Shown here: piece after piece, positions 2,315 to 59,040 of the stretch
How positions within the stretch are numbered: position 1 is the first letter of the stretch
Layout of the letters: every line of letters starts with the position of its first letter
Origin: Candidatus Collierbacteria bacterium
Lineage (GTDB): Bacteria; Patescibacteriota; Microgenomatia; UBA1400; JACPES01
Direction of reading: 5' to 3'
Assembly: GCA_016183365.1 (NCBI GenBank)
Contig: JACPES010000002.1
Location: forward strand, 93,831 to 157,830
DNA length: 64,000 nt
Program-made: the position numbers and the translations under genes
The notes under the pieces: model-generated
What the model was told of the DNA's origin: nothing
The model's input: only the letters and a program-made list of their open reading frames with translations
Databases searched by the model: none

Positions 2315-3163
2315 ATGAAAACTATTGTCACTCATATCAATCCAGACCAAGACGCGATTTCTTCGGTTTGGCTGGTTAAACGGTTTTTCCCGGGATGGGA
2401 CAAGGCGGAGATTAAATTTGTTCCAGCCGGGAAGACTCTAAACAGCGATCCTCCGGACAACGATCCCGAAATTATCCATATGGATACCGGTTTGGGGAAA
2501 TTTGACCACCACACTACCGGAGACAAAAAAGTTTGCGCGGCGATAAAAGTTTTAGTCGAGATAGAAGAAAAAAATTATATCAAGGACAAAATAACTTTGA
2601 AGGCGTTGGAAAGAATGGCGGAAATCATCAGGAGCATGGACCACGCCGAGGAACGGTCTTGGCCGAATCCGGTTTCGGACAGATGGGAGTTTATGCTGGA
2701 AATGATTTTGGACGGATTAAAGACCAGATACGGCCGATTGCAAAATCAGGAATTGGTGGATTTCGGGATGACGGCTTTGGATGGAATTTTGGCAGGAATG
2801 AGAGAAAAGATCTCGGCCAGCGAGGAGATTGCAACTGGAGTAAAATTCAATTGCAGGTGGGGGAAGTCGGTGGGGGTAGAAACAGGCAACGATATGGTTC
2901 ACCGTTTGGCCGAAAGGATGGGTTTTTCGGTGGTGGCGGTCAAGGATCCCAAAAGAGGCAATGTCAGGATATACGGCCATCCCGACAGTCAAGTTGATTT
3001 AACTGAAATTCATTTAGCGGTGATGGCCGGGGATAGAGAGGCTGATTGGTTTCTGCACGCCAGCAAAAAGTTATTGTTAAATGGCAGCCGGGCAAATCCG
3101 GCTATGAGGCCGACAAAATTGACTCTGAATGAAATAATCAAAATATTATCGGGAGAAAAGTGA
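2315..3163 (+). CDS. DHH-family phosphoesterase (NrnA-like nanoRNase / pAp phosphatase-like)
   Basis: Motifs HINPDQDA (DHH motif I/II-like) and FDHHTT (the DHH motif); 282 aa. Confidence 0.55.
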   Translation: MKTIVTHINPDQDAISSVWLVKRFFPGWDKAEIKFVPAGKTLNSDPPDNDPEIIHMDTGLGKFDHHTTGDKKVCAAIKVLVEIEEKNYIKDKITLKALERMAEIIRSMDHAEERSWPNPVSDRWEFMLEMILDGLKTRYGRLQNQELVDFGMTALDGILAGMREKISASEEIATGVKFNCRWGKSVGVETGNDMVHRLAERMGFSVVAVKDPKRGNVRIYGHPDSQVDLTEIHLAVMAGDREADWFLHASKKLLLNGSRANPAMRPTKLTLNEIIKILSGEK

Positions 3164-3188
3164 ATGAGGTAAAGTAAAGATACTTAAA

Positions 3189-3290
3189 GCGATGCGAATA
3201 ACGACAATATGCGATACGAATAACACGAATTAGCATACGAATAACACGAATATTCGTATCATTCGTATGAATTCGTGGATTAGTATCGCG
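3189..3290 (+). promoter_or_regulatory. upstream element family B (acgaataac direct repeats, then attcgtatcattcgtatgaattcgtggattagtatcgcg), directly 5' of rpsU
   Basis: It shares the core attcgKatg-N2-3-attcgtRgatt-N1-3-gRatMgc with the copies at 16489-16578, 43152-43210 and 58945-59040. It lies 18 bp upstream of the rpsU ATG. Confidence 0.6.
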
Positions 3291-3307
3291 AGGGGAGGTG
3301 TTTCAAT

Positions 3308-3502
3308 ATGGCAACAGTAGTCAAAGCGCATGGAGACGAAGACATCAGGTCGCTTTTAATGAGATTCAAAAAACAAGTAATGAAAGAAAACATTGTGGAA
3401 GAGGCTAAAGAGAGGAGGTTCTATAAAAAGCCTTCGACAGTCCGGAAAGAGCGTCTAGCCGCCAACCGGCGGGGTGGCGGAAAATTCGGAGGCAGGTCGT
3501 GA
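3308..3502 (+). CDS. rpsU: 30S ribosomal protein S21
   Basis: 64 aa, basic; C-terminal KERLAANRRGGGKFGG is typical of S21. Confidence 0.9.
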   Translation: MATVVKAHGDEDIRSLLMRFKKQVMKENIVEEAKERRFYKKPSTVRKERLAANRRGGGKFGGRS

Positions 3503-3876
3503 AAATCGATATTTTCGGAGATAGCCGGTATCCGGTAGACCGCAAATATCTAAGGCAGGAAGTAATCTCGCTTTTGAAAGAATTTGGCTTTAACGAGGCC
3601 GATCAAGTATTCATCGAAGTTACCATGATGGGAAACCGCAAAATTAAAGAATTGAACCGGAAGTTCCGGCAATTGGATGAAAAAACAGACGTTTTGTCTT
3701 TTCCCTTGGAAGACCGTAATCCCGGACCGGACGGATTAATCAGATTAGGCGACATCGCGGTCAGTTTTCCGGAAGCGATGACTATGGCTATCAGGACTAA
3801 CAGAATAGTGGACAAAGTTATAGCTGAACTTGTTTGTCATGGAATCAGACATTTGATGGGAGAACACCACGACTGA
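3499..3876 (+). CDS. ybeY: endoribonuclease YbeY (rRNA maturation factor)
   Basis: HGIRHLMGEHHD resembles the YbeY H..HG..HL.G.DH zinc-binding motif. The GTG start overlaps the rpsU stop. Confidence 0.8.
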   Translation: MKIDIFGDSRYPVDRKYLRQEVISLLKEFGFNEADQVFIEVTMMGNRKIKELNRKFRQLDEKTDVLSFPLEDRNPGPDGLIRLGDIAVSFPEAMTMAIRTNRIVDKVIAELVCHGIRHLMGEHHD

Positions 3877-3878
3877 AA

Positions 3879-4007
3879 GTTATCAGTTCTCGGTTCTCGG
3901 TTATCAGATTTTAGTTAACCGGTTTTCAGTCTGCCAGTTTCAAAACAGGCGAACCGAAAACTGATAAACTTGTAACTGAAAACCGAAAACAGAAAACCGA
4001 TAACCGA
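3879..4007. repeat. long imperfect inverted repeat built from ctcggtt/ccgaaaac words between ybeY and dnaX
   Basis: tatcagttctcggttctcggttatcag ... ctgataaacttgtaactgaaaaccgaaaacagaaaaccgataaccga. The arms are reverse complements with mismatches. It is probably a terminator and/or regulatory structure. Confidence 0.5.
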
Positions 4008-4012
4008 CGCAG

Positions 4013-5485
4013 ATGACATTCTATCTAAAATATCGCCCCAAAACTGTGGAAGAATTGGATTTGGTTAAAGTCAGAGACAGGTTGTCGGGGATAATCAAAA
4101 CGGGTAAATTCGGCCACGCTTATTTGTTTTCCGGTCCCCGCGGAGTCGGAAAAACTTCGGCGGCCAGAATTCTGGCCCGTTTAGCCGGAGCCGAGGGAAT
4201 TGATATTATCGAAATGGACGGGGCCAGCAACCGCGGGATTGACGACGTTCGGGAATTGCGGGAAAAAGTCGGTCTGTCTCCGCTATCGGGAAAACGGAAA
4301 GTCTACATTATCGATGAAGTCCACATGTTGACCGCGGAAGCGTTTAACGCCCTCTTAAAAACTTTGGAAGAACCGCCGGAACACGTCATCTTTTTTCTGT
4401 GCACCACTGAACCGCAAAAACTCCCCAAAACCGTTATCAGCCGTTGTGTCGAAGTTAAATTTGATAAAGCCGCTAATCAGGAAATCATCGATTCGGTTAA
4501 AAGATCTGCAAGGAGCGAAAAATTGGGAATAACCGCGGAAGCTTTGGAAAGAATAGCTAAATCGGCCGATGGCAGTTTCAGGGAGGCCCAAACGATTTTA
4601 GAAGAAGCCGCCGAAATATCAGGATCAAATAAAATTGATATATCGGCAGTAAATTCCGTAATCGGAGTTTCGTTGGATAGTTTGGTAAATGATTATGTTG
4701 AGGCGGTGGTTGCCGGGAAAACTACAATAGCACTCCAAGCGGTAGAAAAATTGCTATCTTCCGGCGGGGACATAATGGCATTTGCCAAAGAAATTCTGGA
4801 AGAAGTCAGAAAGCGGTTGCTTAAAAGTTTTGACGCCAGATTGTTGACGGTGGCTAAAGTTTTGGAAATAAAAATCAGAACCTTAAAATATTCCGTTCTG
4901 CCGCATTTGCCTTTGGAGATTGCGGCGATTGAATTGGGGATGGGAAGGAAAAGCGGAGAGGTTGAGGGGCCCCAAAGTATGCTTGCCACGAGCCAGAGGC
5001 TTCCAGCCTCGCGCTCCCGTGGAGCGCAACTTCGGGGTTCGGATGTACCAACAGATTTTTCTAAGAAGAAAAATCTGGGTCCATCCGAAAAAACCGACAT
5101 AAATAAAGAATCATCCATTATCCATCATTCATCATCCATTAATCTTGATACTTTTAGAAGTCAGTGGCCTCAGTTGCTGACTGAAGTCAGAAAAAAGAAT
5201 CATGGCATCGTTACGTTGCTGTCTTTATGTCGGCCGGTAGAGGTGGAAGGCTCGGCCGTGATTGTCGAAACCGCTTATAAATTCCATATGGAGCAATTAA
5301 ATTTAGACCGATTCAGCCAGATTATTGAACAGACGGCCAAAGATATTTATGGAACTCCGGTTCAATTGAGGTACCGTTTGGCTGACAAAACAGTTGAAAC
5401 ATTGAAAAATAACTCTCTAGATGATAATATTGTGGCGGTTGAAGAAGAATTAAGCGTTTCAGCAGAAGAAATGTTTTTATCATGA
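4013..5485 (+). CDS. dnaX: DNA polymerase III subunit gamma/tau
   Basis: AAA+ clamp-loader motifs GPRGVGKTS and DEVHML and the SRC box (VISRC), followed by a low-complexity linker. Confidence 0.9.
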   Translation: MTFYLKYRPKTVEELDLVKVRDRLSGIIKTGKFGHAYLFSGPRGVGKTSAARILARLAGAEGIDIIEMDGASNRGIDDVRELREKVGLSPLSGKRKVYIIDEVHMLTAEAFNALLKTLEEPPEHVIFFLCTTEPQKLPKTVISRCVEVKFDKAANQEIIDSVKRSARSEKLGITAEALERIAKSADGSFREAQTILEEAAEISGSNKIDISAVNSVIGVSLDSLVNDYVEAVVAGKTTIALQAVEKLLSSGGDIMAFAKEILEEVRKRLLKSFDARLLTVAKVLEIKIRTLKYSVLPHLPLEIAAIELGMGRKSGEVEGPQSMLATSQRLPASRSRGAQLRGSDVPTDFSKKKNLGPSEKTDINKESSIIHHSSSINLDTFRSQWPQLLTEVRKKNHGIVTLLSLCRPVEVEGSAVIVETAYKFHMEQLNLDRFSQIIEQTAKDIYGTPVQLRYRLADKTVETLKNNSLDDNIVAVEEELSVSAEEMFLS

Positions 5486-5745: not shown

Positions 5746-5748
5746 CCT

Positions 5749-5842
5749 GATTTACGATTTATAAATTATGAATTATGAATGAAAGATAAAAAAATTTAAG
5801 AAATGTATTATTCGTAAATCATAAATCATTATTCATAAATCA
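5749..5842. repeat. intergenic repeat element family A, copy 2 (upstream of recR)
   Basis: See copy 1; the 32-bp core is identical. Confidence 0.8.
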
Positions 5843-5850
5843 CCTAATAA

Positions 5851-6462
5851 TTGCGAATTCCCAGAGCTATCTCCGATCTTACCAATCAGTTCGAAAGGCT
5901 TCCCGGCATCGGCCCCAAAACCGCTCAACGCTTAACTTTTTACCTTTTACACGTCCCCCAAAATGTTTTGGATGAATTTTCCAAAGCCGTTGCCGAATTG
6001 AAGCGCGGGACAGTCCAATGTTCTGTTTGTCAAAATGTTGCAGAAGTTGATCCGTGTCCGATTTGCGCCGATTCCGGCCGGGACGATTCGGTTTTAATGG
6101 TGGTTGAACATCCTTTGGATGTTTTTGTGGTAGAACGGGCCGGGGTGTTCGGCGGAGTTTATCACGTCCTCCACGGCTTGATCTCGCCTTTGGAGAACAT
6201 CGGGCCGGATGAATTGTTTATTAAAGAACTGCTTGAGAGGCTGAAAAATGATAAAATACGCGAAATTGTCCTGGGGTTGAATCCGACGATGGAAGGCGAA
6301 GCCACGGCGTTGTATCTGAAAAATAAAATCAACGAGTTACGAGCCATGAACCATGAGCTAAAAATCACTCGTCTCGGCCAAGGAATGCCCACCGGCGGCG
6401 ACATCCAATACGCCGATGAATCAACCCTAAAACAGGCGATGGAAGGAAGAAGGGGGTACTAG
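5851..6462 (+). CDS. recR: recombination protein RecR
   Basis: Helix-hairpin-helix motif LPGIGPKTAQRL, a C4 zinc finger (CSVCQNV...CPIC) and a Toprim region. The start codon is apparently TTG. Confidence 0.9.
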   Translation: MRIPRAISDLTNQFERLPGIGPKTAQRLTFYLLHVPQNVLDEFSKAVAELKRGTVQCSVCQNVAEVDPCPICADSGRDDSVLMVVEHPLDVFVVERAGVFGGVYHVLHGLISPLENIGPDELFIKELLERLKNDKIREIVLGLNPTMEGEATALYLKNKINELRAMNHELKITRLGQGMPTGGDIQYADESTLKQAMEGRRGY

Positions 6463-15483: not shown

Positions 15484-16482
15484 TCAGTCAAGGAGTTGTT
15501 GCACTTCACTTATGATTTCTTCTAAACCTCCCTCAAGAACAACATCGAGGTTATGCCATGACTTGTTAATTCTATGGTCGGTAATTCTATTTTGCGGGAA
15601 GTTGTAGGTTCGGATTTTTTCGGCTCTGCTTCCACGACCTACCGCTGTCGTCCGTTGCTGCTCTAAAGTTTTAAGCGTCTTTTCTTGTTCTATTTCCCAC
15701 AATTTAGACCGCAATAGCTCCAGAGCTATGGATTTATTTTGTTGTTGGGTTCTTTCTTGTCTGACGGAAATAACCAGACCACTGGGAATATGGGTTAACC
15801 GGACAGCCGTGCTGACTTTATTTACATTTTGACCGCCTGGTCCGCCGGAATGGGAAAAAGCCCACGCCAATTCATTATCTTTGATTTCAACTTCTAAGGG
15901 AGTGATTTCCGGCAAAACTACTACCGATGCGGTCGAAGTGTGTATCCGGCCGTGGGATTCGGTTTGGGGGATCCGCTGGACCCGGTGAACGCCTGATTCG
16001 AATTTTAATAAGCCATAAGGTCCAACCTGTGATTCTGAATTCTGAATTCTGAATTCTGAATTTGGCGCGCCGGCAACTTTTATTATGCCGTTGTCTATAA
16101 CGACGGTTTTTAATCCAATAATATCGCAAAATCTGCTGTACATCCGCGCCAGGTCTCCAACCCAGATTTTAGCCTCATCTCCTCCGGCTCCGGGGCGGAT
16201 TTCGATGGTGGCGAAACGGGACAATAATTGCTGATTGTCCCGGCTTTGCCGAGTATCCCGCTTCGCCCTGTACCAGACGGTACGGGGCTCCGCGGGATTA
16301 ATTGTTGATTGTTGATTGGAGGATTGTTGAAAGTTAATGCTTTGCCCCAAAACCCGTTTTTGGTCTTCCAATCTTTGTATTTCTTCTTGGGCCAGAGCCG
16401 ATAATTCCGGATCATTTAACAATTGCCGATTGCGGGAGATTTCAAATTCTAGTCGTGAAATTTCATTCTGAAGATCGTTCAA
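15484..16482 (-). CDS. prfA: peptide chain release factor 1 (shortened N-domain; tripeptide motif PQT)
   Basis: GGQ motif (SGGPGGQNVNK) and GVHRVQRIPQTESHGRIHTS, which matches the RF1 PxT region. The start is TTG and overlaps the stop of a short upstream uORF. Confidence 0.88.
   Translation of the reverse strand: MNDLQNEISRLEFEISRNRQLLNDPELSALAQEEIQRLEDQKRVLGQSINFQQSSNQQSTINPAEPRTVWYRAKRDTRQSRDNQQLLSRFATIEIRPGAGGDEAKIWVGDLARMYSRFCDIIGLKTVVIDNGIIKVAGAPNSEFRIQNSESQVGPYGLLKFESGVHRVQRIPQTESHGRIHTSTASVVVLPEITPLEVEIKDNELAWAFSHSGGPGGQNVNKVSTAVRLTHIPSGLVISVRQERTQQQNKSIALELLRSKLWEIEQEKTLKTLEQQRTTAVGRGSRAEKIRTYNFPQNRITDHRINKSWHNLDVVLEGGLEEIISEVQQLLD
16032..16059. repeat. 7-bp x4 tandem repeat (attctga) inside prfA
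   Basis: gattctgaattctgaattctgaattctgaattt encodes NSEFRIQNSES. Confidence 0.8.
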
Positions 16483-16488
16483 TTGAAA

Positions 16489-16578
16489 TTATCGCGATCC
16501 CAATCTACGAATTTCATCCGAATGTTCCGAATGGTGAAATTCGGATAATTCGGATGTTGATTCGGATTATTCGGATCG
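16489..16578 (-). promoter_or_regulatory. upstream element family B copy (directly 5' of prfA, overlapping the rpmE stop)
   Basis: The reverse complement reads atccgaataatccgaat ... cattcggaacattcggatgaaattcgtagattgggatcgcg, then the prfA start. Confidence 0.6.
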
Positions 16579-16869
16579 CCCCTTTGCTTCCGACAACATT
16601 TCCTTCAAAGTTTTTTGGGACACGTCGGACCGGAAAGCAGTCTTTTTTTGTTTTTTTCTATATGAAGATGAAGCCGTCATTTTAGCCTGAAATTTTTCCA
16701 CTCTTCCCTGGGCGTCAACGAATTTCATCTGGCCGGTATAAAACGGGTGGCAAGCTGAACAGACATCGGTTAGAATTGATGGTTTAGTCGAGCCGGTGGT
16801 AAACTTATTTCCGCAAGCGCAAGTTATCGTCGCTTCCGGATAATATTGAGGATGAATATCGGTTTTCAT
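16567..16869 (-). CDS. rpmE: 50S ribosomal protein L31
   Basis: [10 protein letters not shown]...CACGNKF...[10 protein letters not shown] is the classic zinc-ribbon L31. Confidence 0.9.
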
Positions 16870-17005
16870 GAATTTGAATTCGATGTCTTGAAGATAGAAG
16901 ACGGATATTTTTGAACTTGAATTTTTGACTTTTTGATAACTTGATTCAAGAATTCAAAAACATCAAAATCAAAAAATTCAAGAATTTCCAACTTCAAGAA
17001 ATCAA
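16870..17005. repeat. intergenic element family C (cttgaagatagaRga ... ttcaagaaatc words) upstream of rpmE
   Basis: Shares cttgaagatagaagacggata / cttcaagaaatc motifs with 34790-34929, and gaagatagatag with 36990-37100. Confidence 0.6.
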
Positions 17006-22702: not shown

Positions 22703-22772
22703 GTTAATACGTTAATTTATCAATACATCACTTTTGAAAATCTTGTCAATAATCAATTTGGCTTTGGAAATC

Positions 22773-22813
22773 ATGTAGATTGACAATGCTATAGCATATC
22801 GAATTTACAAGGT
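22773..22813. repeat. nested palindromic element family D, degenerate copy (catgtagattgacaatgctatagcatatcgaatttacaagg)
   Basis: Shares catgtagatt ... gctatagca with the perfect copy at 39403-39442; the right arm has decayed. Confidence 0.55.
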
Positions 22814-22817
22814 TGAT

Positions 22818-25037: not shown

Positions 25038-25091
25038 TAATAAATTGCTATATTGCTAAATTGTTCTATTGTTTGCTGTCCGCCAATTAAC

Positions 25092-25115
25092 AATCTAATA
25101 ATCTAATAATCTAAC
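25092..25115. repeat. 8-bp x3 tandem repeat (aatctaat) abutting the dnaB start codon
   Basis: caatctaataatctaataatctaacaATG. Confidence 0.7.
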
Positions 25116-25116
25116 A

Positions 25117-28328: not shown

Positions 28329-28417
28329 TGGTGCCAGGGGCGGGAATCGAACCCGCAAGAGCTTTGAGACTCACAGGTTTTTGAGACCTGCGTGTTTACC
28401 GATTTCACCACCCTGGC
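28329..28417 (-). tRNA. tRNA-Leu (anticodon CAA), class II with long variable arm, CCA encoded
   Basis: The reverse complement gccagggtggtgaaatcggtaaacacgcaggtctcaaaaacctgtgagtctcaaagctcttgcgggttcgattcccgcccctggcacca has a 7-bp acceptor stem, an anticodon loop ctCAAaa, a long variable stem-loop and a T-arm ggttcgattcc. Confidence 0.85.
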
Positions 28418-34786: not shown

Positions 34787-34789
34787 TAA

Positions 34790-34929
34790 ATAGAATGCTT
34801 GAAGATAGAGGATAGATACCCTTGATCTTGAATTCTTGAAGCATTGATGTCTTGATCAAAAATTCAATAAATCAAAGATATCGAGGTCAAGAATTTCAAA
34901 AATATCCATCTTCAAGAAATCTAAACTAT
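34790..34929. repeat. intergenic element family C copy upstream of yebC
   Basis: cttgaagatagaggatagata ... catcttcaagaaatc. Confidence 0.6.
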
Positions 34930-35469: not shown

Positions 35470-35481
35470 TTGTTAGATTGT

Positions 35482-35535
35482 CCTGCAGAGCAGGATCTCG
35501 CTTCGCGAGATTAGATTGTTAGATTGTTTATTTTT
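35482..35535 (+). terminator. probable intrinsic terminator after yebC (hairpins cctgcagagcagg and atctcgcttcgcgagat, then a T-run)
   Basis: Seen directly. Related gcagg/cgcttcgc hairpin words recur at 37181-37212 and 58510-58540. Confidence 0.5.
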
Positions 35536-35589
35536 AAGGTTTAACCGAAGCAATCTAGCAATTTATCAATATAGCAATTAAGTTTTTCA

Positions 35590-36687: not shown

Positions 36688-36989
36688 TCGCACAATATAT
36701 CTTTTACGACGTTATTCCAATATTGTCCGGAGAAGTGGCAAAGATGTCATTTTCCGCCTTTGGCGGAACTATTTATATAGATTCCGGCCTTCGCGGGAAC
36801 GATAAAATTGTTTTGTCCCCCAACAATTCTCAAGGTCAGCTAATTTTAGCCGCTCCAAAAGTTACCCGAATTTTTAAAGGTATTTATATAACCCCATCTA
36901 TTATCCCCAGAAAGCTTTCTAGGGGCATTCTACGAGGCCGGTTTTTGAAAGCCCATACCTTATAGACGATAGATGGTGGAAAATAAAAG

Positions 36990-37100
36990 GTGGTGATTGA
37001 ATATCGAAAATAGAAGATAGATAGTTTCCATTTTCTATTTTCAATCTTCTAACCCTATCTTCCATCTTTCTATCTTCTATCGTCTTAGAATTTACGAAAG
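36990..37100. repeat. hairpin-rich element (aatagaagatagatag ... ctatcttccatctttctatcttctatc), related to family C
   Basis: Direct and inverted copies of the gaagatag word. Confidence 0.5.
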
Positions 37101-37377
37101 CATTGTCGCACAATGTTGACATTAAAATAATATTCTGCTAATCTTAATTAATGTAGGTTAAGAGTTAAGTTTAAAATTGCCCTGCGGAGCAGGGTCCTGC
37201 TTCGCAGGAAAAATTTCGAATGGCTCCCCTACTCTGTCGGAGACTCCCTGTGAAACATTACGCGAAATATTTTCACACGGAGGGAAGCGTCAGGCGTATT
37301 TAATAAGTAAAATATGTATCATTAGGTTTATATATCAATATTTATTTGTTGAAGACCACCATTAGCAAGCTTGAGGC

Positions 37378-38406: not shown

Positions 38407-38441
38407 GAGGAAAACTTAATATGCAAAACGAAAATTATAAT

Positions 38442-38479
38442 ATGTAGAATAACTCTGCTATAGCATAGTAAAACTACAT
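38442..38479. promoter_or_regulatory. nested palindrome family D copy (atgtagaataactctgctatagcatagtaaaactacat) about 70 bp upstream of the PaaX-family gene
   Basis: atgtag/ctacat arms around the palindromic tgctatagca core. Candidate operator. Confidence 0.5.
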
Positions 38480-38548
38480 ATTCTAGAATATTGAATAATT
38501 AGAATGGATGTTAATGGACGTTAAATGCAAGGTTAGGATAATTCGAAA

Positions 38549-39409
38549 ATGAATAGAGAAAAGTCAATTCGCGATACGCATCGGCTGGTGAAAGAAATCA
38601 GTCTGGGAGTTTGTGGAAATCTGGTTGACATTACCCTCTTTTTGGTATGTTTTGCGGGCGGATATATTTTAAGCAGTATGAATACTTCTAAGGGAAGAGT
38701 TAATTTGGAGCCTTTAAAGATTTTGCTCAAGGAATATCCTCAATTGAGATTAAAGCTTAGGAATGTTTTGCGTTTGGCTAAAAGAGATGGATTGATAGAT
38801 GGCGATGATGGATTGACCAGCGCTGGATTTAATAAATTAAACGAAATATTGCCCAAGATAAAACGGTGGCCTAAATGGTCAGGATCTTTATGGTTGATAA
38901 CTTATGATGTGAGCGAAAAAAGGAAAAAGGATCGGGAGATATTTCGCCGATTTTTACTTGATCAGGGATATGGGAAACTGCAGGATTCTGTTTATGTGTC
39001 TCCGTTTGATCCAACCAGATTAGTTAGGAGTGAAATAGAAAAAAGACAGTTCAGAGGAGAAGTGATTGTCTCTAAAATGGGAGTAGATGGACATATCGGA
39101 GAAATGTCGGTAAAAGAGTTAATATCCAAAGTTTACGATTTGGAATCAATTTCAGTTGATTATCTATCATATGTTCAAAGTGTTTCTGGAGACTTCCCGC
39201 TGGAAAAGGCTCCATTCTTATTTTTGGAATATTTGTCTATATTAAAATCAGATCCTCAATTGCCGGAAGAACTTTTGCCGGTTGACTGGCCGGGAAAAAA
39301 AGCTTTTGAACTGACAAATAAGAAATTACTCCCCTATTTACAGCATGATAAAAGAATTGAAGATTTGGTGTTAAGGAATATAAATATTTACAGTTTAAAA
39401 ACCATGTAG
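38549..39409 (+). CDS. PaaX-family transcriptional regulator-like protein
   Basis: WLITYDVSEKRKKDREIFRRFLLDQGYGKLQDSVYVSP aligns to E. coli PaaX WLLLLSEGLDKSTLADVKKQLIWQGFGALAPSLMASP. C-terminal DPQLPEELLPVDWPGKK aligns to PaaX DPLLPEELLPAHWAGH. The mid-region has a superficial Cas2-like (L.TYDVS) look. Confidence 0.65.
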   Translation: MNREKSIRDTHRLVKEISLGVCGNLVDITLFLVCFAGGYILSSMNTSKGRVNLEPLKILLKEYPQLRLKLRNVLRLAKRDGLIDGDDGLTSAGFNKLNEILPKIKRWPKWSGSLWLITYDVSEKRKKDREIFRRFLLDQGYGKLQDSVYVSPFDPTRLVRSEIEKRQFRGEVIVSKMGVDGHIGEMSVKELISKVYDLESISVDYLSYVQSVSGDFPLEKAPFLFLEYLSILKSDPQLPEELLPVDWPGKKAFELTNKKLLPYLQHDKRIEDLVLRNINIYSLKTM

Positions 39410-39442
39410 ATTTGATTTGCTATAGCAGAGTCAATCTACATG
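39403..39442. repeat. nested palindrome family D, perfect copy (catgtagatt-tgatttgctatagcagagtc-aatctacatg) overlapping the PaaX-family gene stop codon
   Basis: 10-bp perfect inverted arms. The gene's ATG-TAG stop is part of the left arm. Confidence 0.7.
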
Positions 39443-42534: not shown

Positions 42535-42639
42535 TCGGAAAACTCAGAAATCCGGATAATCGGATACTCGGAGAGTCGGATTTTCAGATAATCTGATTGT
42601 CTGAATTTCTGGCTATCAGAGTATTCTGAGTGTTCTGAA

Positions 42640-43125: not shown

Positions 43126-43151
43126 GTTTTCACCCCCGATCTCAATGCTAT

Positions 43152-43207
43152 CCTAATCTACGAATTCATCCGAATGCTACGAATAGAATTCGGATAATTC
43201 GGATCGC

Positions 43208-43210
<3 letters not shown>
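43152..43210 (-). promoter_or_regulatory. upstream element family B copy (directly 5' of ppa, overlapping the gyrB stop)
   Basis: The reverse complement reads atccgaattatccgaattctattcgtagcattcggatgaattcgtagattaggatagc, about 25 nt upstream of the ppa ATG. Confidence 0.6.
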
Positions 43211-45259
<2,049 letters not shown>

Positions 45260-45343: not shown

Positions 45344-46111
45344 TTATTTCTTAGGAATATCCAGGACGAACTGCTGCAGGGCCAGCTGGACGTTGAGGTT
45401 GTTTTTTAGGCGGCGGTGGGATAAACAAGCTGCTACTAGGCAGTTTGTTATTGAGCGTTGAGCGTTGAGCGTTGAGCGTTGAAGGCCAGGAGTTGAATAC
45501 TGAAGAAGTGCCTGATGCAAGTTGACAATGATATTTTCCATAAATTTCAGGGCATCGGGGCGTAGGATAGTACTTTGATACGGAGAGAATTTTTTGGCGG
45601 AAAATTCGGATAGCAAGTCGTAAAGAATAGTTAATTTTTCAGACGGTGATTTATTCCCAATTTCTGTCAAACTATGTAGAATGCCCATGCTATAGCTTGT
45701 TGAATCTACATTGGTTGCTGACGCTTCGGTGGGTAATCTGATAATCTTGCATCTTGACCTGATGGTCGGTAGCAGTGAAGATTCTGAATCAGCAATTAGA
45801 ATAATATAGTTATTTTCTCCGGGTTCTTCCAGAATTTTTAATATTGCGTGTTGGGCCGGAATGGTTAAGGTTTGGGCCTGATGGATAATTACCGCCCGCT
45901 GGTCGATTGTCTTTTGCGACAACCAGTTAGTAATAAACCTGACGTCTTCAATCGTTAATGTTGGAATTTTCGAGGCAGCTTTAGCCGAAGGATTCAAGTC
46001 CAGCCTATTTTTCGGCTCAATCCTGCCGATACCCAGGCGGGTACCGGGCAGATCTTCAACCCGTTCCTCTACCCTATTTTGATTTTGGCCACAAACTATG
46101 AATGCGTGCAT
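45344..46111 (-). CDS. holB: DNA polymerase III delta-prime subunit-like (clamp loader)
   Basis: IILIADSESSLLPTIRSRC (the SRC motif) within AAA+-like architecture. Confidence 0.7.
   Translation of the reverse strand: MHAFIVCGQNQNRVEERVEDLPGTRLGIGRIEPKNRLDLNPSAKAASKIPTLTIEDVRFITNWLSQKTIDQRAVIIHQAQTLTIPAQHAILKILEEPGENNYIILIADSESSLLPTIRSRCKIIRLPTEASATNVDSTSYSMGILHSLTEIGNKSPSEKLTILYDLLSEFSAKKFSPYQSTILRPDALKFMENIIVNLHQALLQYSTPGLQRSTLNAQRSITNCLVAACLSHRRLKNNLNVQLALQQFVLDIPKK
45451..45478. repeat. 7-bp x4 tandem repeat (ttgagcg) inside holB
   Basis: ttgagcgttgagcgttgagcgttgagcg, then ttgaagg. It encodes STLNAQRSTLNAQ-like residues on the minus strand. Confidence 0.8.
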
Positions 46112-50130: not shown

Positions 50131-50232
50131 AAAATGAAAAAATATTTGCCCGCCTTGCCTTACTACTCGCCTTTTACATCCCGATGTCATGTCGGGGACG
50201 GCTCGTGGAGCAGCTGGTCGGCGGGTCGCACA

Positions 50233-50265
50233 CTATATTGTAATTATATTGTAATTATATTGTAA
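50233..50265. repeat. 11-bp x3 tandem repeat (atattgtaatt) in the major pilin promoter region, following a GC-rich 60-bp segment
   Basis: ctatattgtaattatattgtaattatattgtaattaataaattat ... aggaggtg ... ATG. Confidence 0.75.
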
Positions 50266-58457: not shown

Positions 58458-58566
58458 ATTGCTATATTTGGTAATTGTTAAATTGTTAATTGTTAATAGA
58501 ATGCAATTAGTTCTGCGAAGCAGGATTTGGCTCTGCCAGACAATCAGCAATTAGCAATCAGAAATT

Positions 58567-58941
58567 TTGAAAAAACACGGCTTCACCCTCATTGAACTCC
58601 TCGTCAGCATATCCATTATTTCGGTTTTAACGGCTATAGGTTTGGCTAATTATGCCGTTAGCCAGAAACGGGCCCGCGATGCCAGACGGCAAGCAGACTT
58701 GGAATCGGTCAGATCGGCTTTGGAAATTTATCGGGCCGATAATTTGGCCACCGGTTACCCCAATACTACTTATGCCGGTTTATCAGCGACCTTACTCCCT
58801 AACTATCTTTCTCGGTTGCCGTTGGACCCTAAAAATACCGCTCCGTATATTTATGCTTATACCGGCGGCGGGAACACTTATACAATCTGTGCTACTCGGC
58901 TGGAGGGAACCGAGACGGCTTATTGTTTGACGCAGCCATGA
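58567..58941 (+). CDS. type IV pilin-like protein (TTG start)
   Basis: KKHG|FTLIELLVSISIISVL. Confidence 0.6.
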   Translation: MKKHGFTLIELLVSISIISVLTAIGLANYAVSQKRARDARRQADLESVRSALEIYRADNLATGYPNTTYAGLSATLLPNYLSRLPLDPKNTAPYIYAYTGGGNTYTICATRLEGTETAYCLTQP

Positions 58942-58944
58942 CGC

Positions 58945-59040
58945 GATCCTAATAAATCCGAATTCATCCGAATGCTCCGAATAGTATAGTATTAAATAGT
59001 ATTAGGATTATTCGGATGTCATTCGTAGATTTTGATCGCC
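58945..59040 (+). promoter_or_regulatory. upstream element family B copy; its internal ATG is used as the start of the next pilin-like gene
   Basis: atccgaattcatccgaatgctccgaat ... attattcggATGtcattcgtagattttgatcgcc. Confidence 0.6.

Follow-up and report, generated by a model that had tools for sequence, protein, structure and literature searches.

The stretch of DNA analysed here, 64 kb from the genome of a Candidatus Collierbacteria organism (Microgenomates, candidate phyla radiation, CPR) found in groundwater and referred to below as the window, contains four copies of an imperfect palindrome, designated family B, each wedged between two genes, with rpsU, prfA, ppa and a pilin gene next downstream (copies 1 to 4; Table 1, in which the gene neighbours were assigned via Pfam). 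The original prediction that four related copies are present at these places was borne out by direct reading and by a covariance model, R1, which was built from 37 copies with the window's four among the seed. A scan with R1 found exactly four copies in the window, the next-best match scoring 19.8 bits, and the E-values of the four (1.6e-18 to 1.6e-8) are those of seed members, which match by construction; the same model also found copies in other CPR genomes. With 7.8 +/- 2.8 occurrences expected, the window has 21 of the word ATTCGKAT, a count of 21 being reached by none of 100 shuffles, and 15 of these are inside the four copies. The region is AT-rich and repetitive, as would suit chance similarity arising from a low-complexity AT/CG word bias, but the shuffle test, the E-values down to 1e-18, the independent non-seed matches in other genomes and phyla and the ordered architecture of the 37 copies leave that explanation with a negligible probability, as had been predicted.

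Family B is about 60-100 nt long, with a typical length of about 80-95 nt and a hairpin of about 85 nt, and its parts follow in the order GCGATCC, ATCCGAAT words, loop, ATTCGGAT words, ATTCGTAGATT and GGATCGC. When the window copies were aligned with copies of other genomes, the consensus of the left half was nCGATCCGAAT-n-ATCCGAAT-tnC-ATCCGAAT-G-CTCCGAAT and that of the right half, after a loop of 3-20 nt, was t-ATTCGGAGC-ATTCGGATG-nn-ATTCGTAGATT-n-GGATCGC, and both the order and the asymmetry of this architecture are common to the 37 aligned copies. Each arm is made of three to four 8-nt words (ATCCGAAT or ATTCGGAT) with a phase of about 9 nt, and these words are kept across CPR classes, with the loops and spacers variable. 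One arm is marked by the word ATTCG-TA-GATT, whose TA is not paired by the other arm and is bulged from the helix, and symmetric copies bear this marked word at both ends (as in L224; further contigs and assemblies are designated by L numbers). The individual arms are not palindromes, GT(A/G)G being internal to one arm of the hairpin of about 85 nt, while the scaffold of each word, AT-Y-CG-R-AT, is a dyad in itself. Both ends of the element read outward as ...GGAT(C/T)(G/A)(C/T), with a GGA like that of a Shine-Dalgarno (SD) sequence, and the inward-reading ends often have TAA or TAG.

Copies 1, 2 and 4 fold far better than their shuffles (z = -4.7, -5.6 and -5.1 respectively), and the truncated copy 3, in which half of one arm has been lost, folds no better than its shuffles (z = -0.5). 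Across the alignment of 37 sequences, 88.4% of the cells of the proposed helix are standard pairs, compared to 20-45% when the partner column is slid, and the terminal inverted repeats co-vary (GCGATCC..GGATCGC, ATAATCC..GGATTAT and GCAATCC..GGATTGC). This covariation is mostly in the three terminal pairs, where GCG/CGC is replaced by ATA/TAT or GCA/TGC with both sides changed in 11-14 sequences, and compensation in the inner word pair is weaker. Many left ends in the alignment had been located via complementarity, and the terminus test was redone without that step; the resulting non-circular 2x2 test of left type against right type was significant (Fisher p = 0.0012), with GGATTAT right ends having ATAATCC upstream in 15 cases and GCGATCC in 0, and GGATCGC right ends having GCGATCC in 6 cases and ATAATCC in 4.

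The words themselves also vary in a patterned way. Copy 1 has ATACGAAT and ATTCGTAT in place of ATCCGAAT and ATTCGGAT, a change of C/G to A/T made in both arms, and in some subfamilies one arm is uniformly altered (as with the four ATCCAAAT words of L230 and of L251), so that one strand has A-C and the opposite strand G-T, which suggests that the words of one arm evolve in concert. Partial arm duplications were also seen, the right-arm module being present two or three times in L172 (2446-2566) and L260 (6263-6440), and together with the partial tandem duplicate in copy 1 they suggest that arms grow by local duplication. Words conserved across classes between variable spacers and loops, their homogenisation within an arm (ATCCAAAT again) and their dyad scaffold would also be expected if a conserved CPR protein (nucleoid-associated, a regulator or partition-like) bound an array of sites on double-stranded DNA, in which ATYCGRAT words form head-to-head blocks at a spacing of about 9 bp. 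We regard such an array as very improbable, since copy 1 has its word altered in the left and the right arm of a single locus, the covariation of the termini is that of a helix, many sister families of the same architecture (below) use unrelated words that one protein could not read, and copies lie inside rRNA genes and in frame in an open reading frame (ORF).

A metagenome scan for ATTCGGAT-N2-4-ATTCGTAGATT gave at least 130 distinct instances on at least 120 contigs, and R1 found extra copies on those contigs that lack the exact pattern, so that there are several copies per contig. Clear copies are present in Saccharibacteria, Azambacteria, Roizmanbacteria, Portnoybacteria and a contig labelled 'Patescibacteria group', and non-seed copies scoring 61-70 bits with R1 were found in Doudnabacteria (three in 8 kb), Jacksonbacteria, Portnoybacteria and others. 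Pattern searches were less discriminating: a loose scan of genome contigs with ATTCGGATNATTCGGAT gave 118 matches which were mostly chance or coding DPN repeats, although the clear copies in Saccharibacteria and the other groups named first above came from it, and a fixed pattern with 3 mismatches allowed missed copies because of their variable spacing. [quoted passage not shown]

Close relatives differ in whether they have a given copy of family B. At the rpsU junction, ten contigs whose S21 is identical to that of the window (L001-L010) have only 16-40 nt, with the SD conserved and the element absent, and the gyrB-ppa spacer of L139-L141 is 14 nt without the element (tag-aagggggtgaaaac-ATG), that of L143-L146 being occupied by an unrelated 164-nt palindrome. 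R1 found no family-B copy at the rpsU and ppa loci of these relatives (L001-L010, L139, L140, L143, L144 and L146). Between rpmE and prfA, relatives have palindromes made of other words (agaaagtac in L271 and L275, attgtta in L273). Copy 4 is kept, with the canonical GGATCGC end, in three more assemblies of close relatives (L267-L269), and ten assemblies of the same population have copy 3 in identical form. As close relatives have the same genes without it, the element is not a required leader. It was also observed that gyrB (43208-45229) encodes 673 amino acids in the window compared to 1095-1099 in the L139 and L143 lineages, where it has an intein (PF14890), and this presence/absence polymorphism of the intein adjoins the element-polymorphic gyrB-ppa spacer.

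Tightly flanked copies have a median distance of 3-6 nt to the ORF on either side, and in 41 of 41 of them at least one end is next to a gene start; 5 of the 41 are in divergent spacers and none in convergent spacers, compared to 13.6% convergent among element-free spacers in the same contigs (P = 0.0025), with looser flank criteria placing 1 of 41 and 5 of 70 copies in convergent spacers. Start codons peak 5-14 nt past the terminal nGGAT. The genes downstream are unrelated and include those for S19 (twice), S13, S7, L27 (twice), L15, L10, ClpP (twice), AtpD, FtsZ, LigA and SecDF, amongst others. The association with 5' gene ends proposed in the original prediction is therefore upheld by gene-start proximity and the lack of convergent copies, but it comes with no consistent promoter or terminator call.

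Other details of that proposal held only in part. A distance of 15-30 nt to the start codon was expected, and measured from the proximal terminus it is 18 nt for rpsU and 21 nt for ppa, but 11 nt for prfA, and the pilin ATG is inside the element; any insert in a stop-to-start spacer of 14-40 nt would in any case give such a distance. Overlap with the preceding stop codon is true of copy 2, which contains the stop of the L31 gene, whereas the gyrB stop abuts copy 3 and the upstream prepilin stop is 1 nt away from copy 4. Within the window, the strand which places ATTCGT(A/G)GATT next to the downstream gene outscores the opposite strand by 15-20 bits with R1 in all four copies, so the claimed orientation with the gene is real there, but it does not extend to the family, as in co-directional spacers the marked arm is by the downstream start in 21 copies and reversed in 15 (p = 0.41). 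Orientation cannot, however, test a promoter or leader role, because both ends of the palindrome face outward alike.

Several of these features would fit a portable expression module whose spread is secondary, each outward arm being a promoter and/or a 5' leader with a ribosome-binding site (the -10 being TAGATT, TAGTAT or TAGGAT, a weak -35 being provided by TTCGGA at 17-18 nt upstream, and the SD by GGAT), which the palindrome would make bidirectional. It would account for the gene start by at least one end in all 41 copies, for 5 divergent and 0 convergent positions against the 13.6% background and for the start-codon peak after nGGAT; the element also fills nearly the whole spacer of divergent gene pairs in L224 and L238, copies 1 and 3 have a TAnnnT hexamer about 7 nt before the purine preceding the gene's own SD, and the genes downstream repeatedly include highly expressed ones, among them those for ribosomal proteins. 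We nevertheless think such a module unlikely. There is no consistent sigma-70 call, the -35-like word agreeing with TTGACA at only 3 of 6 positions, and the same genes in relatives have 14-40 nt spacers with no element. Copies precede genes that are normally mid-operon (S19, L15 and S7) and need no promoter, others are within rRNA genes and introns, and solo arms face stops in 16 cases and starts in 10. Divergent spacers of 6-34 nt are present elsewhere in the window, so promoters in the window are commonly inside coding sequence and a short spacer filled by the element proves nothing.

The scans for expression signals agree with this. Searching the four copies for sigma-70 promoters (at least 4 of 6 matches per hexamer and a spacing of 16-18 nt, at a constant site of the element) gave nothing consistent; the only match that overlaps an element, at copy 2, has its GATAAT outside the element, and none was called in copies 3 and 4. 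Intrinsic terminators (a GC-rich stem and then a run of T) were found at 0 sites in all four copy regions, and several genes downstream of copies are normally in the middle of a ribosomal-protein operon (S19, L15, S7), so that the hairpin cannot terminate transcription efficiently. At the gathering score, Rfam matched only a tRNA (28332-28417) in the window and gave no match to the element, and its E-value mode gave just sub-threshold matches to generic hairpins (miRNA precursors); intrinsic terminators, sigma-70 promoters and Rfam families were consequently all set aside as identities for the copies, having no consistent match. A primary role as a promoter, a leader or a processing site is not supported by the tests made here.

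Family B is one of many families of phased-word palindromes between same-strand genes. Of the 20 co-directional spacers of the window with a length of 55-260 nt, 9 have a 7-9-nt periodicity and a fold with z <= -3, compared to 0 of 3 other spacers, and the ybeY-dnaX, ppa-gyrA and rpmE-prfA junctions have a palindrome in every lineage examined, made of differing words. One sister family (GACGATAGATGG...) is at different junctions in different genomes. The sequence before gyrA (42540-42620), put forward originally as a fifth and more diverged relative of the four copies, scored 17.7 bits with R1 (E = 0.22) and belongs to another family, with TCAGA/TCCGA words.

Such constancy of structure would be explained if the host selected an intercistronic RNA hairpin as a site for processing by RNase III or another enzyme, for stabilisation or for translational coupling, much as in the intercistronic RNase III sites of phage T7 or the mRNA stabilisers formed by REPs, and selection on structure would explain how families replace each other at one junction. 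The long palindromes at those three junctions and the strongly folding co-directional spacers (9 of 20, against 0 of 3) are in its favour, as are the resemblance of the copies in rRNA genes to intervening sequences and an RNase III gene encoded just past the window (rnc, L277 6501-7157, next to rpsP and nusB and about 3 kb past the 3' end of the window); the transcribed hairpin may thus be processed by RNase III. We judge selection of this kind to be less probable still than the portable module. Sense and antisense strands of family B do not differ in folding energy and G-U use (Wilcoxon p = 0.18), and of 26 palindromes from all families 9 are stabler sense, 16 antisense and 1 equal (p = 0.21), some of them folding better antisense by about 20 kcal/mol; as folding is no stabler on the sense strand, there is no sign of selection on the mRNA strand. 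Relatives, moreover, do without the element at their rpsU and gyrB-ppa junctions, and the repeated words and the conservation of their sequence would be left unexplained.

Table 1. Copies of family B and other repeats of the window. Scores are R1 bits for the strand given versus the opposite strand.
Feature	Position	Strand	Context	Words and ends	R1 score (bits)
Copy 1	3189-3289 (core 3211-3289)	+	between ChrB_C-like gene (stop 3161-3163) and rpsU (ATG 3308)	attcgtggatt 3271-3281; terminus agtatcgc 3282-3289	74.8 vs 60.0
Copy 1, duplicate	3189-3210			22-nt partial tandem duplicate of left arm	
Copy 2	16494-16579	-	between rpmE (L31) and prfA (TTG 16482-16480)	proximal GCGATCC 16494-16500; aatctacgaat 16502-16512; distal GGATCGC 16573-16579	89.6 vs 69.4
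Copy 3	43147-43207	-	between gyrB (stop 43208-43210) and ppa (ATG 43125-43123)	distal arm down to two words; attgagatc 43138-43146 resembles a decayed word	47.7 vs 29.9
Copy 4	58943-59039	+	between two prepilin genes (upstream stop 58939-58941; downstream pilin ATG 59016)	attcgtagatt 59021-59031; terminus ttgatcgc 59032-59039; inner variant attaggatt	75.0 vs 59.8
'Family A'	2217-2303, 5748-5840		fill spacers before starts 2315 and 5851; fold z = -2.4 and -2.7	gatttacga... / ...attcgtaaatcataaatcattattcataaatca	
Long phased-word palindromes	3877-4012, 16870-17005, 25038-25116, 34787-34851, 35470-35589, 36966-37095, 42535-42639, 58458-58566		same-strand spacers	own words each	
TGTAGA/TCTACA family	22769-22814, 38436-38485, 39403-39442, 45668-45717			TGTAGA...GCTATAGC...TCTACA	
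GC-rich hairpin pairs	~35480-35515, ~37180-37215, ~58505-58540; L084 ~5855-5885			GCGAAGC / GCTTCGC type	
Tandem repeat	50225-50265		just upstream of gene start 50282	tatattgtaat x3	

Two of the window copies have become part of the genes beside them. Copy 2 encodes the last codons of L31 (GRSE) and its TAA stop (16567-16569), and in copy 4 the inner variant word attaggatt supplies an AGGA (59003-59006) and the right arm encodes the start codon at 59016 (ATG) with the prepilin-leader codons MSFVDFDRH, so that the element has been co-opted for the end and stop of L31 and for the start and leader of a prepilin. The use of this ATG as an element-supplied pilin start, noted originally, is conserved in L267-L269. 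An internal ATG opening an upstream ORF (uORF) had been noted as well, and before prfA there is indeed a 12-codon uORF (16479-16517, minus strand; MKFVDWDRDNFN) starting at the ATG (16517-16515) of the word ATTCGGATG, with a TGA (16481-16479) that overlaps the prfA TTG (16482-16480). This arrangement is specific to copy 2, the ATTCGGATG ATG being present in only 53 of 127 copies and opening an ORF of 5 codons or fewer in 37 of those 53; no uORF is conserved in the family and the prfA uORF, though real, is thus incidental. With regard to L31, rpmE (16567-16869) encodes 100 amino acids of which residues 1-63 only are covered by the Pfam domain, and a C-terminal tail of about 35 amino acids is common to relatives with its last residues differing per lineage, as these final residues are encoded by whichever palindrome comes after rpmE.

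Copies are also found in RNA genes and, in one case, inside a reading frame. Two lie within the 16S rRNA gene (2946-4802) of L157, at 3254-3344 and 4325-4414, and tips of rRNA helices are among the sites occupied. The marked right arm comes directly after group I introns of 23S rRNA genes on three contigs (L255, L237 and L266), and in L255 (10478-10830) the group I intron is between the left arm and the right arm. On the minus strand of L155, at about 4462-4482, family-B words are in frame in a long ORF (...DPNLRMHPNLQMISDSNLQ..., ...DPNLRMHPNL...), and this is an in-frame insertion like those of the Rickettsia palindromic elements (RPEs).

We therefore favour the reading that family B is probably a non-autonomous mobile, or recently mobile, palindromic hairpin repeat of CPR/Patescibacteria, similar in nature to REPINs, MITEs and RPEs. 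Copying may be the work of an enzyme that acts in trans and recognises the single strand in its folded state, and the element would then be transcribed within operon mRNAs without terminating them. It may be tolerated there because a self-contained hairpin would hold the upstream stop near the downstream ribosome-binding site and start in the folded mRNA, with the outward GGAT perhaps able to act as a ribosome-binding site itself and the ends able to give a stop codon and sometimes a start codon. The copies in structured RNA (16S rRNA, and the arm beside 23S group I introns) are counted as further cases of such tolerance, in favour of mobility.

A number of points weigh against this reading. 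No mobilising enzyme or transposase was identified in the loci examined, and no consistent direct repeat (target-site duplication) was seen in the flanks, the empty and filled sites compared being too diverged to fix the boundaries. The copy count for the source genome covers 64 kb of it. Only 1 viral contig in 2.9 million has the family-B pattern, which suggests that the element is not phage-borne and has no evident vector for spread between lineages, and for a selfish repeat the 8-nt words are conserved to an unusual depth across CPR classes, which could reflect a conserved host factor that reads them. The recurrence of the same downstream genes in unrelated contigs (S19, L27 and ClpP, twice each) fits a selected expression function, as the avoidance of convergent spacers also would, and the palindrome at three junctions in every lineage examined may hint that a hairpin is needed there.

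Amongst known systems, family B is closest in kind to REPINs, Correia-type MITEs and RPEs, without being a member of any of them. REPs are imperfect palindromes of 20-40 nt, one end of which has a GTAG (or CGTC) tag that is unpaired, and they favour spacers on the downstream side of genes, where the ORFs are unidirectional or convergent (PMC3733652). REPs and REPINs, mobilised by RAYT (TnpA-REP) transposases, share with family B the nature of short non-coding intergenic hairpin repeats in many copies, a GT(A/G)G with unpaired bases on one side and compensatory changes in the helix; REPs have no target duplication, REPIN dimers fold to hairpins of about 100 nt and some REPs are inside genes, as family-B copies are (PMC3733652, PMC3337134). 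In family B, by contrast, the GTAG is within a hairpin of about 85 nt with only the TA bulged, the arms are made of words phased at 9 nt, and the copies are always by a gene start and never (0 of 41) in convergent spacers, whereas REPs favour the 3' side. No RAYT or other transposase was found among the 10 window proteins scanned against Pfam.

The ends of Correia elements can bear outward promoters, and the RNA hairpins that these elements form are cut by RNase III. The Correia elements of Neisseria (CREE/NEMIS) and MITEs like them resemble family B in their length of about 100-150 bp, their terminal inverted repeats, the absence of an ORF, their closeness to gene starts and their co-transcription, and they are the closest functional analogue of the promoter or leader module originally proposed. 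Family B has no sequence similarity to Correia elements, however, which have a TA target duplication and an integration host factor (IHF) site; no target duplication, promoter match or parent insertion sequence with the same ends was seen for family B. Like MITEs, it is shorter than 300 bp, has no ORF and occurs as dispersed copies with terminal inverted repeats and presence/absence polymorphism. Only housekeeping genes and no transposase were present between the paired copies on L165 and L176, in the course of work that included no systematic search for a parent element.

RPEs are palindromic repeats in the reduced genomes of host-dependent bacteria; they insert into genes for proteins and for RNAs, whose products then include them. 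The end of L31, the prepilin leader, the in-frame stretch of L155 and the 16S insertions are all similar to this, but RPEs are unrelated to family B in sequence and lie for the most part within ORFs, the stop-to-start spacer being the usual place of family B. The attC sites of integrons are imperfect palindromes of 57-141 nt, conserved in structure and variable in sequence, in which extrahelical bases set the active strand; they resemble family B in lying between co-directional genes and in these extrahelical bases, which are like the bulged TA. An attC identity was rejected, as family B has no RYYYAAC or GTTRRRY cores and its neighbours are syntenic housekeeping genes (rpsU, prfA, ppa, gyrA/B) and not cassettes. 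TIGR arrays (TIGR-Tas), which are common in CPR, have tandem 36-nt units with two alternating repeats, variable 9-nt spacers and a Tas (Nop-domain) gene, and share with family B short repeats (8-12 nt) at a scale of about 9 nt (PMC12045711). Family B is a single dispersed palindrome without variable spacers and with no Tas gene nearby, and so it is not a TIGR array.

Four further candidates were tried and rejected: DnaA boxes, since TTATCCGAA agrees with TTATCCACA in 7 of 9 positions, the critical CACA not being matched; CsrA GGA sites, as the GGAs of family B are paired in the stem; a likeness to the tRNA T-arm (TTCGAATCC), there being no tRNA-like match; and the cyanobacterial HIP1 octamer GCGATCGC, which resembles only the joined termini.

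More speculatively, and we would not rate its chances highly, family B and its sister families may not be purely selfish and may together constitute a system, common to the CPR, of intercistronic hairpin cassettes that are exchangeable and needed by the cell, each carrying a stop, a ribosome-binding site and possibly promoter or processing signals, in which the ATCCGAAT family could be read by a conserved CPR factor; this would explain both the conservation across classes and the strict association with gene starts. Searches of full-text literature found no earlier description of such elements. CPR/Patescibacteria have small genomes with little room between genes, and the signals for gene expression in them have hardly been studied. 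Family B would shape operon structure, gene ends and annotation in these bacteria generally, as the element can be the origin of a called start or stop, of a "C-terminal extension" or of an odd leader peptide. It also offers a sequence tag for metagenomic CPR DNA and a handle on the enzyme that moves the element. Should the hairpins prove functional, be it in coupling, in processing or in initiation, no CPR-specific class of expression signals would have been described before them.

Among the sister palindromes, those at 42535-42639 and 3877-4012, and one at L139 3487-3609, fold better antisense than as the mRNA strand by 18-28 kcal/mol, and in these one strand has A-C in every word pair where the opposite strand has G-T. 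The TGTAGA/TCTACA family has one copy in a convergent spacer and one apparently inside an ORF (45344-46111). The pairs of small GC-rich hairpins at 35480-35515 and 58505-58540, and that of L084 (Azambacteria), are at the centre of AT-rich word palindromes, and the pair at 37180-37215 is about 85 nt past the nearest palindrome (36966-37095).

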